Source: an uncultured archaeon (GTDB lineage Archaea > Asgardarchaeota > Lokiarchaeia > Sigyniarchaeales > SOKP01). From it: a DNA stretch of 14,345 bases. The stretch spans positions 1 to 14,345 of the forward strand of contig CAZBPC010000087.1 of NCBI GenBank assembly GCA_964493715.1, given 5' to 3'. A program made the translations under genes and the position numbers. Shown here in pieces: positions 6,816-14,040 of the stretch. Positions within the stretch are counted from its first letter, which is position 1. The number at the start of each line of letters is the position of its first letter. The notes beneath the pieces are model-generated. The model did no database searches. It saw only the letters and a program-made list of their open reading frames with translations, and was not told the origin of the DNA.

Positions 6816-7541
6816 ATGATAATGTCCAAGAAAAAATTATACATCCTTATTCCAGCATACAATGAGGAAAAGTCAATCACTTCTGTTATTAGTAGTATTC
6901 CAATGTATTCAAACGTGCAGAAATTTGTCATTGTCATTGATGATGGAAGCACCGATAATACGATCGTGAAAGCAAAAAACGCTGGAGCAACTGTTTTAGC
7001 TAATAAGCAAAATTTAGGATTAGGAGCTACTTTCAAGAAAGGTTTAAAGAATGCTATTAAAAATAATGCAGATATTATCGTGATATTAGATGGTGATGGT
7101 CAATATAAATCGACTCATTTATCAGAACTCGTATTCCCCTTGATAAATAATAACGTGGATATGATCATTGGTAATAGATATTATTATGGTTATCGTTCAA
7201 GCATCCTAAAAGAAGTAGTAAATAAAGTTATATCAATATTTATAAGCCGAATATTATTAGGATCTGAAATATTATATGACGTTCAATCCTCGTACAGAGG
7301 GTTTAATAGAAAATTAGCATTATTTTTATTAAAGGAATTGAAAGGTAGTTACAATTATTCTCAAGAGATGTTCATGCTTGCTTACATCAATAAATTCAAA
7401 ATTAAACAAGTACCAGTTGAATGCTTTAAAAGATTGAATGGATCATCGAGATTAATAAGAAATCCATTTATCCATATCTTTAAAATAATCAAAATCAGTT
7501 TAATTACCTATTTTCAACAAAAATATATGAAGGAATTTTAA
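6816..7541 (+). CDS. GT2 family glycosyltransferase (DPM1/polyprenol-phosphate glycosyltransferase-like)
   Basis: Motifs IPAYNEE, VIDDGSTD, NLGLG, DGDGQY and DVQSSYR. The start may be the ATG at 6816 or 6822. Confidence 0.9.
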   Translation: MIMSKKKLYILIPAYNEEKSITSVISSIPMYSNVQKFVIVIDDGSTDNTIVKAKNAGATVLANKQNLGLGATFKKGLKNAIKNNADIIVILDGDGQYKSTHLSELVFPLINNNVDMIIGNRYYYGYRSSILKEVVNKVISIFISRILLGSEILYDVQSSYRGFNRKLALFLLKELKGSYNYSQEMFMLAYINKFKIKQVPVECFKRLNGSSRLIRNPFIHIFKIIKISLITYFQQKYMKEF

Positions 7542-8320
7542 TTAGAGGGTTCTTCAGACATTTGGCCCGATGGATCTACCCCTAATTGTTGTATCATGAC
7601 TTTCTTTAATTCTGTAATGTTTTTTGGTAATCCAAACATTTCGGAGTATTTGTCAGTTGTAGTCAATTCAAAAGATCTCCCCTTCTTGACCGCATTAATA
7701 AATTCATTATCAATTAAGTACTTAATGTGTTCATAAGCTCCGCTTCCCCGTATCTTTATAACGACTGATTTTAAGATGGGCTGTTTTAATGCGATTATTG
7801 TTAATGTTCGTAAGTAACGCTCAGCAATTGCTCCCCCCTTTACAAATTTAGCAATACTTTCCGTGTATTCTGGTCTAAGTTGCATTTGATATCGTTCTCC
7901 TACTTGAGCAATAATTAGTGCAGTAATACGCTCTAGATATTCCATGGCTAATTCATTAACTAAAGTTTCCGTCAATTTTTTAGGGATTTCTAACTTCGTA
8001 GCTAATTCTTCAATATCTAATGGACGACCAGCGGCATAGAGAGCACCTTCAATTAAATTCTTTTGAATATCCCTAATTTCCAATTCTTTTTCTTTTTCTA
8101 TTAATTTTGTATCACTATCGTTCTCAGGAATCATCGAGTCAGGCTCTTCAACTTTCTCGATAACGGGTAATGCTTCCTCGCCGTTTAACTTATCAACATC
8201 TTCTTTAATTTCTTCACTATCTTCATTAGTATTGTCTGTTTCTTTTTCCTCTCTCTCTTCAGGAATTATTTGTTCCTCTTCTTCCAGATTTCTTTCTTCT
8301 TCAGAATCGTTCATGAACAT
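7538..8320 (-). CDS. scpB: Segregation and condensation protein B (kite, tandem winged helix) with an acidic N-terminal extension
   Basis: LIEGALYAAGRPL, YQMQL, LRTLTIIALKQPI, IRGSGAYEHIKYL and TTDKYSEMFGL match the ScpB pattern. It lies immediately downstream of scpA. Confidence 0.92.
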   Translation of the reverse strand: MFMNDSEEERNLEEEEQIIPEEREEKETDNTNEDSEEIKEDVDKLNGEEALPVIEKVEEPDSMIPENDSDTKLIEKEKELEIRDIQKNLIEGALYAAGRPLDIEELATKLEIPKKLTETLVNELAMEYLERITALIIAQVGERYQMQLRPEYTESIAKFVKGGAIAERYLRTLTIIALKQPILKSVVIKIRGSGAYEHIKYLIDNEFINAVKKGRSFELTTTDKYSEMFGLPKNITELKKVMIQQLGVDPSGQMSEEPSN

Positions 8321-8340: not shown

Positions 8341-9345
8341 TTATTTCTTTAAGCCAATTGCAAAATCTTCAAAATCTTCATTTTGTGATAAAGTTAATTT
8401 ATTGCCTGTTGATAGGAACATTAAAGCCAAAAAAAGTCTGACAAATGCAAATCTTCGGCCAATCTCGCTCTCTTCCTCATCAATAATAATCTTCGCGATC
8501 TCATAAAAAGAAGTTTCTTTTTGGTCAAATTCTACTTTCGCCTTTATTCTATTAAACCAAGATTCATGTAATTCTTCTACAGAATGTTCCCTTCCAGTTA
8601 TATGTTTCAGGAGTTCCTTGGGTAATTGAGCTTTTGAACGTACCAAGAGCTTGTTTTGTTTTAATTCTTCACGACGCATGCGTCTCCTTTTTAACTTCTC
8701 TTTATTTTGCATGGTCTCAATGATGGCAGATCTCATTGCATCAAACAATTCCTCCTTTGTAGAAATTAACATTTTTGGCTGAATGGGTTGGGGTAATGTC
8801 TTAGGTATGGATCTTCCATGTTTTTCACGGAATAATTCAAGCTCTTCTTTCTTTTGTATATCCTCTTCTTCTCTTATTATACTTGATATTTTATAATGAT
8901 GTAAAAGCGCAGAAGTTTTTAGCGCAATCCCAGATATCTTGTAATTAATCAGATCTTCTGATAACATGTTACTAAAAAATTTATCTACTAATGCTGATAA
9001 ATCATAAAACGCAACGTTAGAGTCTTTCGCTAACTCAGGATCCAGAAGGCTTGAAAAGGGCGGTTTTTGCCAAAATTTTAGTTCTAATTTATCCTTTTGA
9101 GATAAAGCGGGATCATATTCCTCACCAGCAATCAATTCTTCTTCCAATTCTTCATCAGGAATCGCATCATGAGTTCTGTCAACAAACTCGGGGTGATTCG
9201 CTATTGGTTCCAAGATCTTAATAAGATCAGCTTTCTTCGATTTCGTGGGTATCTTTATGTTATTTTTAGTAGCAAATTCTCTCAGTTGCTTAACATTCCA
9301 TTCACTAAAATTATAAATCGTTTTAGTTTCTTCTGGTTCTGGGAT
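8341..9345 (-). CDS. scpA: Kleisin ScpA with an N-terminal HeH/Rho_N/SAP-like domain; proposed start ATC at 9345 (the ORF track starts at TTG 9213)
   Basis: Kleisin N-domain DLSALVDKFF..INYKISGIALKTSALLHHYK and C-terminal winged helix FVRLFLALMFL..KLTLSQNEDFEDF. The frame stays open 44 codons upstream of 9213, back to TAA at 9348-9346, with SD AAGGTG (9358-9353) 7 nt before the ATC. Confidence 0.82.
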   Translation of the reverse strand: MPEPEETKTIYNFSEWNVKQLREFATKNNIKIPTKSKKADLIKILEPIANHPEFVDRTHDAIPDEELEEELIAGEEYDPALSQKDKLELKFWQKPPFSSLLDPELAKDSNVAFYDLSALVDKFFSNMLSEDLINYKISGIALKTSALLHHYKISSIIREEEDIQKKEELELFREKHGRSIPKTLPQPIQPKMLISTKEELFDAMRSAIIETMQNKEKLKRRRMRREELKQNKLLVRSKAQLPKELLKHITGREHSVEELHESWFNRIKAKVEFDQKETSFYEIAKIIIDEEESEIGRRFAFVRLFLALMFLSTGNKLTLSQNEDFEDFAIGLKK

Positions 9346-9767
9346 TTATGAACACCTTTATTAATTGAAAATATTATGATTAATACTAGCTTTTATATCA
9401 ATCAATTAAATTATCAAATTTTAAACTTTTTGCCTATGAGCATTAAATTAGTAAAGTTTTCTAAAATTATAGATTAAAATCACCAAAAATCTATTTCGTA
9501 CAAATATCAATTCGAAATCAAATGTTCTTTTTAATATCTGCAAGATTTCAATTTAAACTTTAACTATTTTTGACAAAAAATCACAGATCTGCCACTAATT
9601 TAATCTTTAAAAATTAATGGTGATGTTCAGAATTAAATTCAAAATATAGATAATTTCTAATTTAATATTAGAACACGGCTCGTTAATGATTAAACCCATA
9701 CTTGATAGTTTTAAAAATGCTGAAATGAAAACTATCTTAACAAATTAAGATCATAAAAAGGAATAAT

Positions 9768-9976: not shown

Positions 9977-10011
9977 CCACGACCCTTGTTCATTTTACTT
10001 TTGGGTCGTGG
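9977..10011. repeat. GC-rich 9-bp inverted repeat CCACGACCC-N17-GGGTCGTGG at a gene convergence point; possible terminator hairpin or binding site
   Basis: Arms at 9977-9985 and 10003-10011, followed on the + strand by TTTTCATTTTCTTTATTTT. Confidence 0.5.
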
Positions 10012-13000
10012 TTTTCATTTTCTTTATTTTCTGAGTCCCATCGATTAGGTTAATTAGAAGTAGATAATCGTTAATATTCAAATCTTCAAATAGCAAATCA
10101 ATATGCTGTACAAAATTACTAATTATACATTTATGTAATTTTATTTTGATGAATAATCCCTCATCAAATCGATTAACACCTTCTTGTCCCGAGATCTTAT
10201 AAGCACCTTCGATTTCATAAATAAATCCATAATTGAAAAAACTGAAAATTCTTTTCAATTTTATTAAATCTTTCTTTTTGATATTTGGTATGATAAAATA
10301 AATAGAATCTCTAAATCCTGCATTTTTTACAGAGATATATGGTATTATCAACGCCCTACCAATTAAATCTTTGATTATTTCGATTGTTTTTATCTTTTTA
10401 GTCAATAAAAAGGATTTTATGTCAATGGGTTCCAAATCATAGATTTTTAAAAGAGTTCTATATTCTTTAGAGTCTATACTATAAAAATGAGAACTATTAT
10501 TGTTATAGAGATCATAATTATGTATCCTATGATCGGAATTTAAATCTTGGTCCGAAAGAACTTTCTTGATATGGCGTTTAAAGAAATCTTCATTATAATC
10601 CCATCCGCTATCTGTGATATTTGCTTGAAAATCAAATAAAAAACTCACTGTTTTTACTTGAAAGCTACAAAATTCTTGAATCTCCTCCATTTCAGCTATT
10701 TCCAAATAAATATCATTACATGACTCTAAATTTTGGAGATAGCTTAATAGGAAATGAGGGTTATTCTCAATACTACTTGAATATTTTAACCTGAGAAATG
10801 ATTTGTTAAATTTTACTATGAGCTTTTCCATGTTCAAATTTGAGTTTTTGAAATATATAAAATTTAGAGTTAATTTAAAGGAGTGGAAAATTGGAATAAA
10901 ATAGAGATGATTAACATAGTTCGAAAAGAATTCCTTATTTTTAGTGGCTTTATACTCGGAATCATCAGGTAAGAATTCTATTCAGATCTTTATGAAAATT
11001 CATTAATTCCTCAAATGATTTTAAATCTATTTTATTACTTTTTTTTTGATTTTTACTATTTACAAAATTCGTTATTTTTGAAAAATCATCAATTTCAGAA
11101 AACAAATATCCGTCAATTTGATAATTATTTCTCAAAGATCTTTTATTTATTTCTCCTAAAGTCTTCTGTACATATAAAAAGTATTGTTTAAACAAATCAG
11201 GAGTATAAAAAAATTGCTCTTTTTCAAAGTCATAGAAACTTTTACTAGTAAATGCGATTGTCATGCCAGTCCATATGTAAAATCTCGCTTTAATCAAGCT
11301 ATCGTGAAAAAGTGTATAAAAATATGAAAGAAGTGCTTTCTTTTCTTTATTACTTAGATAAGGTACTGAAAGTTCAACCAAGAGATATTTCTTTTCATTA
11401 TAAAAGTCCTTAGTTTCAAGGATTATAGTTCTTGGAAAAAAAAATTTAAATTCTCCTAATTTCAATCGCGTTTCTTTTGACTCGATTAAATTAATTTCCA
11501 AAAATTGATGAACATATTTATCAGCAGTAATAGTATTTATAACAATTGGTTTTATTAGTTGAGGTTTATAAGATAAGTATTTTCTAATTTTCTCGTCTAC
11601 CAAGTTTCCAGTCACTCTATATAGTTTAAATTTTTCATAATCTGCTTTGAGTTTCTTCTCTTTAGATTCAAAAAGTGATTCTAATATTTCTTCTTTTAAA
11701 ATAACACTTTTAATAGCGTTTAGATCAAATATTTTCAGATTATAAAAAGAATTAAATAATTTTGTAAACTTAATGAAATCATTTTTAGATTGTAAATATA
11801 TTTCTTTTGCCCTAAAAAAAAAGGGGATTAATTCTTGAATAACATTTCTTTCAATATACTTTAGTTTTAGTATTTTTTTTTCAAATAAATCAAACTCATT
11901 AATTTTTTTTTTGAATTCCTCTTTAAATTTCGAAAAAGAGCGTATCTCCACATTCCTTTTGATAAACGATTCAACAATTTCAATTGCTTTATTATAATTC
12001 TCGATTTTTTTCTTGATGTAAAAAAAACCATCTTTTCTATTCTTTTCTATGATTTGGAACAATCTATTTTTTAAATTTGTAGATGAATGGAATAATTGCA
12101 AAGTTTCTTTCAGTTCTTTAATTATTGCTCGTTGAGTAATTATATCATTTAGTAGATCTGATTTGAGCGCTCTTAGTGTTTTAGCTCTTTTTTCGAAACC
12201 AAAACTAAAATAAGAAAAGGATCTTAATCGATCAAAAATTAAAAAATCAAGAAGTTCCAATTTCCTTTCTGTTAATACATTACCATAATTAGTCTCAAAT
12301 TTTATTTCATAATCTTTTTTGTATTTTTGAGCCTTTACATCAATAAATTTTCGATTGCGAATTGAATCTCTAAAATAGTTCAGGTTTATAAGGTGTTCCC
12401 CATGACAGATGTCTAAACAACTGAAATCAGTAATATAATTCGTACTCTTTAATTTTTGGAGTAATGTTAAAAAATCACTTAGATAATATTTTGGTAAAAC
12501 CATATAACCATAAATACTTAAACCAAATCCATCATAGTAATATTTTGGAGTATTAAAAAATGGTAATCCTTTGAGTGATTCAATTATTTTTTCTTTGTTT
12601 AATGAGTGGTTAAACTCCATAAATAATGAAATTACAAGCAAATTGATGGCCTTATATTCTAATTGGTATGATGGAGCAATCATACTATGATGATGAATCC
12701 AATTTAATTGTTTTTCGAATTTTCTTAGTGAAAGGGATGTGATTAAAAGCTTTTTTTCTTTAAAATCTTGGAATAATTCCTTAAAAATATGGATGTTCTC
12801 AAATATCTGCTGATTATAAAAAATGAATATCAAGCATCTTAATGTTTCAACCATCTCTTCATTGCTTTCTGGTTTGAACTCAAATTCAAGAATTTTATAG
12901 AGAAAGATATTAATTATACGGGAATGATTTTCAAATTTTGTTTTTTGTAAATAATTAAAAAAGAATTTCACAATATTCAATGAATCATCTAATTGAGACA

Positions 13001-13966: not shown

Positions 13967-14040
13967 GGGAGAGTGGCTTAGCCTGGTATAGCGCACGGCT
14001 GATAACCGTGAGGTCGGGGGTTCGAAGCCCCCCTTTCCCA
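13967..14040 (+). tRNA. tRNA-Ile(GAT), intronless, CCA not encoded
   Basis: Acceptor GGGAGAG/CTTTCCC plus A73, D-arm GCT..GG..AGC, anticodon arm CACGG-CT-GAT-AA-CCGTG, T-arm GGGGG-TTCGAAG-CCCCC. Candidate TATA TTTTAAG at 13937-13943. Confidence 0.96.

Follow-up and report, generated by a model that had tools for sequence, protein, structure and literature searches.

How complexes of the structural maintenance of chromosomes (SMC) family keep hold of one stretch of DNA as they pull in a second one is an open question of mechanism. In eukaryotic condensin, the DNA anchor is the 'safety belt' made of the kleisin and a HAWK subunit, and we know of no counterpart of this anchor in the kite-type prokaryotic complexes. 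Nor, to our knowledge, does any eukaryotic kleisin have an N-terminal helix-extended loop-helix (HeH) or SAP domain. The main text of a preprint (10.1101/2024.01.07.573240) places the kleisins of Asgard and TACK archaea other than Nse4 as the likely sister of the condensin and cohesin kleisins. Here, we analyzed a contig of 14,345 nucleotides (nt) from a Lokiarchaeial (Promethearchaeia) archaeon (CAZBPC010000087.1; the whole stretch is referred to as the window), in which the minus-strand gene at 9345-8341 is predicted to encode a 334-amino-acid (aa) kleisin of a condensin-type SMC-ScpAB complex. Its product would consist, in this order, of a net basic HeH domain of about 40 residues, an acidic and probably flexible linker of about 37 residues, and a normal kleisin, the latter with a helical N-domain to bind the SMC neck, a central ScpB-binding region, and a C-terminal winged helix to bind the SMC head. 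We consider it likely that this HeH-bearing kleisin starts at an ATC codon and provides the SMC-ScpAB complex with a flexible DNA tether.

The kleisin open reading frame (ORF) as called has its start at TTG 9213 and its stop at 8341-8343 and codes for 290 aa. An earlier note on this DNA had claimed that the frame remains open for 44 codons beyond this start, and it had quoted 45 residues for the extension; translation of 9345-9211 on the minus strand returned exactly these residues, followed by the 290-aa ORF. The frame is open from 9345 to 8344 (334 codons, 334 aa), and its first ATG, GTG, or TTG is that TTG, none of the three being found in any of the 44 codons before it. With a GC content of 31.3%, the chance of finding 44 stop-free codons at one given place is about 3% by simple arithmetic, so that openness alone is weak evidence and it is conservation that settles the coding status. 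We confirm that the extra N-terminal domain on the kleisin really exists and that it is fused to a true kleisin.

The homologs were Lokiarchaeial (their sources are given as Promethearchaeota or Lokiarchaeota archaeon), and many of them are 330-340 aa long, cover the whole query, and begin with a Met that aligns to the window ATC codon. Within the same genus (as defined by GTDB), the frame was open and alignable across the extension in all 19 loci reaching that far. A survey of 133 genomes of the same GTDB family recovered a kleisin match (E ≤ 1e-20) in 108, and in 95 of these, belonging to 8 out of 13 genera, the extension was aligned as well (alignment start at query residue 14 or earlier); the remaining matches were mostly cut by contig ends. 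Conservation in orthologs, a check that the earlier note had set for its own proposal, is thus borne out. The ratio of nonsynonymous to synonymous substitutions (dN/dS) over the 45 extension codons was about 0.15-0.35 in general. Comparison with the two closest relatives (G022 and G001) gave 0.35 and 0.28, and of the 153 pairs, the 46 for which dS was usable had a median of 0.18. The kleisin core had values of 0.03-0.07. Residues L21, P33, and K38 of the HeH domain are invariant in the alignment, as are F54, D56, R57, E68, E70, A73, and D78 of the linker in alignment A1. Purifying selection on the HeH extension is evident from these codon comparisons.

The earlier note had also assigned the extension to the HeH type, to be checked with a profile search and AlphaFold, and both point in that direction. 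We compared it with the Pfam families HeH (PF12949), SAP (PF02037), Ish1 (PF10281), and Rho_N (PF07498), listed as HeH/SAP/LEM/Rho_N, which we take to be one Pfam clan. The window copy matches them below the curated cut-offs (scores are given further on), and orthologs match them above: the double-HeH orthologs P0091 and P0100 reached 38.9 and 38.3 bits for HeH and 36.4 and 34.7 bits for SAP, both also passing Ish1 and P0091 Rho_N too, and ortholog P0121 passed Rho_N with 25.1 bits. In the 21-member domain alignment, members matched Rho_N (18/21), Ish1 (15/21), HeH (13/21), and SAP (6/21) at E ≤ 0.01. The AlphaFold2 (AF2) model of the domain alone (predicted local distance difference test [pLDDT] of 78) is made of two helices with about 10 residues of extended loop between them, all within 35-45 residues as in HeH domains, and pLDDT was 83-88 across residues 11-50. 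The same two helices and loop are found in the full-length model.

Structural comparison of the predicted domain with 48,161 PDB representative chains (VIA-align) gave best matches that were mostly SAP, LEM, or Rho-N domains. The best one of SAP type was the SAP of SLX4 (7bu5; Z 5.7, root-mean-square deviation [rmsd] 1.9, 45 of 49 residues), and others were an hnRNP-U-like SAP (Z 5.5), the SAP-like domain of CDNF (Z 5.3), the Rho N-domain (Z 4.9), the SAP of PIAS1 (Z 4.7), the LEM domains of emerin and LAP2 (Z 4.5-4.6), and the SAP domains of Tho1 (Z 4.3) and Ku70 (Z 3.6). Taken absolutely, such Z values are low, which is to be expected for about 40 residues; since Foldseek E-values were also poor, the fold call rests on sequence profiles and structure jointly. 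A search of the HeH profile against PDB sequences was uninformative (partial matches to R2D2 covering half a domain, E 0.002, and the Tho1 SAP at E 1.2). With 8 Lys/Arg and 3 Asp/Glu, residues 11-45 carry a net basic charge. Profile matches in orthologs and the predicted fold together identify the extension as a helix-extended loop-helix domain of known type.

The rest of the protein is, by profile comparison and predicted structure, a true kleisin. The profile of the family (A2), used against 1.84 billion representatives, retrieved 103 proteins at E ≤ 0.001, and among 22 more distant matches that were scanned (220-312 aa), 13 were positive for PF02616 (SMC_ScpA) and 6 also for Rad21_Rec8 (E ≤ 0.001). 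Aligned with hhalign to an alignment of the 13 PF02616-positive proteins, the A2 profile gave a probability of 99.8% (E 1.6e-29) over 227 columns, corresponding to residues 87-334. Distant kleisins of 220-290 aa begin to align at their own residues 3-23, in agreement with the previous claim that canonical ScpA lacks a HeH domain, and the N-terminal 86 residues (HeH plus acidic linker) lie, as far as these alignments tell, outside the canonical kleisin. The linker (residues 50-86), immediately N-terminal to the ScpA-aligning region, has low pLDDT. The C-terminal winged helix (residues 255-334, AF2 pLDDT 73-81) had as its top three VIA-align matches, out of the 48,161 chains, the C-terminal winged-helix domain of ScpA (4i99_C; Z 10.1, rmsd 2.0, 70 of 70 residues), Scc1-C (1w1w_E; Z 10.0), and 6qpq_D (Z 9.4). 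Foldseek returned the same top matches for the winged helix, with E-values of only 0.06 and none at E ≤ 0.001, and a search of the full-length profile against PDB sequences had Scc1-C as its sole match (6qpw_B, E 0.19), which is uninformative.

Sister lineages carry other modules at the position of the HeH domain. Kleisin orthologs of genus g17 have a (HhH)2 there, before the acidic ELIAG linker (HHH_5, E 8.6e-14, 52 bits for a cut-off of 27), and genus g12 and representative P0122 have a zinc-finger-like CPYC...H.C motif accompanied by basic residues (the replacements in sister genera can be seen at loci L062, L064, and L061 of genomes G059, G058, and G045, respectively). Other families of the order have long Lys-rich tails at the kleisin N-terminus, and some kleisins of 400-410 aa have two HeH copies. 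The HeH domain has been gained, doubled, and replaced between genera, and all the lineages of the order that we examined had a kleisin with some N-terminal add-on of DNA-binding type. We infer that the trait common to the HeH, (HhH)2, zinc-finger-like, and Lys-rich modules is non-specific DNA binding, and it is mainly the presence of these other add-ons where the sister lineages lack the HeH that suggests a DNA tether. The HeH domain would then be a binder of nucleic acid with no sequence preference, double-stranded DNA being its most likely ligand, and would act as a flexible tether that strengthens the hold of the complex on the chromosome near the SMC neck and head, the place at which DNA is clamped and the kleisin N-gate is found.

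Domains of this class can have other ligands: LEM binds BAF, the SAP-like domain of MANF/CDNF binds the ATPase domain of BiP, and the N-domain of Rho binds RNA. The HeH could accordingly be a protein-protein or RNA-binding module that couples the SMC complex to another machine and tethers no DNA. Rho_N is the Pfam family most often counted in the domain alignment, complexes of CDNF/MANF with BiP and of the emerin LEM with BAF are among the structural matches, and the presence of HeH on topoisomerase VI-B (Topo VI-B) and other proteins would suit a common docking partner. However, where sister lineages have replaced the HeH, (HhH)2 and Lys-rich tails have taken its place, which are classic binders of duplex DNA without specificity and not modules for protein docking, the HeH itself is net basic, and no candidate partner was identified, so we regard such a coupling module as unlikely.

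At least five open frames of the genome carry a HeH of the same type, some near the N-terminus and others near the C-terminus. Besides the kleisin, these include a 1108-codon frame for Topo VI-B on contig C63 (L073:1-1995), with Topo-VIb_trans (E 1.4e-29) followed by a long tail containing a HeH-like segment (A3 profile, E 7.9e-5); a 335-aa family-unassigned protein and a 432-aa ABC_transp_aux/GIFT-like protein, both with a C-terminal HeH (C5:88055-89059 and C6:35767-37062, respectively); and a 314-aa family-unassigned protein on C4 (L067:736-1677) with HeH near its N-terminus (Rho_N, 29 bits, above the cut-off). Together with the gain, doubling, and replacement between genera, this distribution would fit a mere nucleoid-localization tag placed on many unrelated proteins and without a function particular to the SMC reaction cycle. 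Such a tag is a weaker form of the tether proposal and does not contradict it, but the kleisin has its N-terminal add-on in every examined lineage of the order, whereas the 216-aa ORF in the kleisin position of the second, SMC5/6-like operon has none, suggesting that selection is specific to the kleisin complex. A pure localization tag seems quite improbable to us for these reasons.

The HeH domain escapes annotation because its likely start is an ATC codon behind a Shine-Dalgarno motif. In 18 same-genus loci, a GGTG-type motif (AGGTG in 17 and AGGAG in L011) is found 6-7 nt before the codon aligned to the window ATC, and the codon itself is ATT in eight loci, GTT in four, ATC in three, and ATA, ATG, and GTA in one each. 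ATC is common to G022 and G001, while ortholog P0004 and L011 have ATG there, and no canonical start precedes the HeH in 13 of 19 same-genus loci. A sequencing error changing ATG to ATC was rejected, given that G022 and G001 have the same ATC and that contigs from three other runs (X4 with two strains, X5, and X6), which span 9343-9356, have no listed difference at the ATC (9343-9345) or the GGTG (14 weaker differences in this comparison are outside the listing). We also rejected the GTG inside GGTG followed by a +1 frameshift as a start; L020 and L022 read GTG and then TAA, and the other loci have no common slippery site.

Initiation at ATT, ATC, or ATA (ATH) has bacterial examples in infC and pcnB of Escherichia coli, which start at AUU, and NCBI translation table 11 lists the three codons as starts. 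We scanned the genome for codons located 5-8 nt after GGTG and near the 5' end of a frame, with at least 150 codons following and no canonical start within the next 20. The scan found 20 cases of ATT/ATA/ATC, 29 of ATG, 6 of GTG, 6 of TTG, and 9 for all the 55 other codons together. With CACC as a control, the counts were 0, 0, 0, 0, and 7, in the same order; with TGGG, they were 0, 3, 0, 2, and 3; and with GGGT, 1, 8, 0, 1, and 2. In at least 6 of the 19 other ATH candidates, all canonical starts lie downstream of the point where a Pfam domain begins (at profile position 1-2); these six are V-ATPase subunit D, an AAA_5 ATPase, TrmB, two Ras-like GTPases (P-loops included), and POR alpha. Initiation at ATH codons behind a Shine-Dalgarno motif hence appears to be a habit of this organism, with about 20 strict cases, and this makes ATC 9345-9343, and not the TTG used by gene callers, the most likely start of the kleisin. 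We found no description of ATH starts in the literature on Lokiarchaeia.

Elsewhere in the window (9995-10981, minus strand), a 280-aa ORF called from TTG 10837 has 48 more open codons upstream with no canonical start; this extra frame begins with ATA right after a TGA and may be another ATH start (no Pfam or NCBIfam match was found for it). Aragorn, with introns allowed, predicted 27 tRNAs and no tRNA-Met, which is uninformative on ATH decoding. A metatranscriptome run (X24) contained a single 265-nt contig at the locus, over 8621-8885 in the kleisin core and with 4 differences, for which DNA carry-over is possible; there were no X24 contigs over the HeH region or the start, and contigs of this kind cannot show a 5' end.

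A different explanation for the missing start is that translation begins at TTG 9213 and that the upstream frame is a decaying remnant left after the loss of an ATG. The 44 codons contain no ATG, GTG, or TTG, public gene calls of the clade are short (P0001-P0003, 290-291 aa), and the smc-scpA linkage is broken in this sub-clade. But the frame is intact, with dN/dS of 0.28-0.35 against the two relatives sharing the ATC, the GGTG is at a conserved offset, ATH starts are used elsewhere in the genome, and the second X4 strain keeps the frame, the ATC, and the GGTG in spite of 13 differences in 9139-9357. We consider an untranslated extension highly improbable.

A number of results weigh against the proposal of an ATC-initiated kleisin with a DNA tether. 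At the domain level, the Pfam scores of the window copy are sub-threshold for HeH (25.8 bits, cut-off 28.9), Rho_N (22.8, cut-off 24.9), Ish1 (22.0, cut-off 26.6), and likewise SAP; VIA-align ranks first a C-terminal portion of T4 endonuclease VII (Z 6.0), which is not a named SAP domain; Z values of 4-6 are, as the tool warns, in the range where a common arrangement can be reflected; and Foldseek found no HeH match at E ≤ 0.001 for the model (best E 1.5). Moreover, HeH-class domains that bind RNA (Rho) or proteins (LEM-BAF and MANF/CDNF-BiP) are in the structural match lists, and the occurrence on Topo VI-B and other proteins marks the HeH, judging from this distribution, as a general mobile add-on with nothing special to SMC mechanics and not as an SMC-specific invention. 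As for the start, GTT or GTA occupies the conserved offset in 5 relatives, neither being known to us as a start codon; an ATC is found one codon earlier in 4 of these 5 loci, and L012 has only an ATA at +1. Lastly, Pfam SMC_ScpA had no match at E ≤ 0.1 to the protein or the genome. None of the 9 close family representatives matches PF02616 either, and ortholog L061 does so weakly (E 0.0018, below the cut-off); the PF02616 model is too narrow for the present clade.

The gene downstream of the kleisin is scpB, which codes for the kite subunit (Pfam SMC_ScpB, E 2.2e-33; TIGR00281, 97.8 bits, above the cut-off). The Pfam domain covers only residues 89-240 of ScpB, preceded by a strongly acidic N-terminal extension of about 85 aa. 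Among 30 related loci, scpB is downstream of the kleisin in 28, and the 3' end of a long smc is directly upstream in 21, indicating that smc-kleisin-scpB is the normal arrangement. As had been noted earlier, no smc is adjacent to the kleisin here. There is none in the window, the smc-kleisin link being broken in this genome and in G022, G001, G023, and G012. Two SMC genes and one Rad50-like gene are present in the genome, which comprises 3.68 Mb in 160 contigs. The long SMC frame, on contig C11 (G000:C11:31016-35461, L065), has 1482 codons, about 300 residues more than usual, with no match to Pfam SMC_hinge at E ≤ 0.001, and the next gene after it is convergent and codes for a 455-aa product with many Cys pairs; from the gene order in relatives, it is the putative partner of the window kleisin.

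The second SMC (C48:11541-12734, L003:259-1452) is about 1140 aa long, with a weak hinge match, and two ORFs come after it, one of 216 aa and one of 177 aa. Neither of these had a Pfam match; an SMC5/6-like complex may have them as its Nse4-like kleisin and its kite. The genome fits the pattern of two SMC complexes described for Asgard and TACK archaea in the main text of the preprint cited above (10.1101/2024.01.07.573240). The coordinates of all features are given in Table 1. Other genes between 2189 and 7541 of the window are unrelated to SMC and code for a MoxR-like AAA_5 ATPase, an N6/N4 DNA methylase, a pyruvate formate-lyase-like glycyl-radical enzyme, and a family-2 glycosyltransferase (Pfam). 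Aragorn also detected a tRNA-Ile (GAT) at 13967-14040 on the plus strand, and the genome has a tRNA-SeC.

Table 1. Features of the kleisin locus, in window coordinates, and examples of ATH starts in other contigs of the genome
Feature	Coordinates	Strand	Basis
Shine-Dalgarno-like GGTG, 7 nt 5' of proposed start	9353..9356	-	Sequence; kept in same-genus loci
In-frame TAA stop bounding the frame upstream	9346..9348	-	Translation
Proposed initiation codon ATC, first codon after TAA	9343..9345	-	Aligns with ortholog ATG (Met)
Extension without annotation, 45 codons (residues 1-45); TTG 9213-9211 is the first canonical start	9211..9345	-	Translation
HeH domain (predicted), residues 11-49: helix 18-27, loop 28-37, helix 38-49	9199..9315	-	Pfam, AF2, structural matches
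Acidic linker, residues 50-86, conserved HPEFVDR and ELIAGEE..DP motifs	9088..9198	-	Alignment; low pLDDT
Kleisin (ScpA-like) core, residues 87-334	8344..9087	-	hhalign
C-terminal winged-helix domain of kleisin (predicted), residues 255-334	8344..8583	-	AF2 and structural alignment
scpB (kite subunit), starts 20 nt past kleisin stop	7538..8320	-	Pfam SMC_ScpB, TIGR00281
Putative ATT/ATA/ATC starts, genome G000 (examples)	C5:43062-43691, C16:36089-37363, C16:1252-1929, C39:21877-22437, C14:11502-12296, C9:30884-32110

A kleisin with a modular N-terminal domain of DNA-binding type appears to be undescribed, the kleisin and HeH types themselves being known. We found no description of a HeH-bearing kleisin in the literature; the main text of the preprint (10.1101/2024.01.07.573240) does not contain 'HeH', 'N-terminal', or 'domain architecture', although its supplementary tables might list domain content, and in PMC3053371 the word kleisin is found only in a reference title. 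In the archaea closest to eukaryotes, the condensin-type kleisin would thus have a dedicated, flexibly linked module of DNA-binding type, which is replaced at the same site by at least four other putative DNA-binding solutions. With this natural domain-swap series, what a kleisin-borne DNA contact does can be tested directly. Going further, the interchangeable add-on might be the DNA anchor of a loop-extruding Asgard condensin, a second DNA contact at the neck gate similar to the safety belt and an early step in the elongation of kleisins towards those of eukaryotic condensin and cohesin, a scenario that we put forward tentatively and hold to be rather unlikely. On the annotation side, because these archaea appear to use ATH starts, public gene calls remove the HeH and also shorten core proteins at the N-terminus, V-ATPase D and several GTPases among them, and hence comparative studies of Asgard proteins that rely on these calls miss such features.

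With regard to known systems, the start resembles those of E. coli infC and pcnB in having a near-cognate Ile codon behind a Shine-Dalgarno motif as the sole start, but the present case is archaeal and apparently genome-wide (about 20 strict cases) and has no known autoregulatory role. The HeH shares with the HeH/SAP/LEM/Rho_N domains (SLX4 SAP, 7bu5; Tho1 SAP, 1h1j; Rho, 1a62; emerin LEM, 2odc) the two predicted helices and the extended loop of about 10 residues; it differs in falling below the Pfam cut-offs and in its kleisin host, which we have not found described for them. MukF, the kleisin of MukBEF, also has an extra N-terminal domain before the helices that bind the SMC neck, described in PMC5812716 as a dimerization domain, but that domain is of another type than HeH, and the window kleisin is not closely related to MukF. 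The canonical ScpA of Smc-ScpAB (Pyrococcus and Bacillus subtilis; 4i99, 5xg3, and 5h66; PF02616) is homologous over its full length to residues 87-334, the predicted winged helix superposes on 4i99_C (Z 10.1), and relatives have the smc-scpA-scpB order, while the differences are the 86 extra N-terminal residues, the lack of a direct PF02616 match, and the unusually long putative SMC partner. Finally, the winged helix fits the Scc1-C of the eukaryotic alpha- and gamma-kleisins (Scc1/Rad21 and Brn1/CAP-H; 1w1w, 6qpq, 6yuf, and 6qj2) as well as it fits ScpA-C, but the window kleisin would pair with a ScpB-type kite, whereas the eukaryotic ones pair with HAWK subunits.

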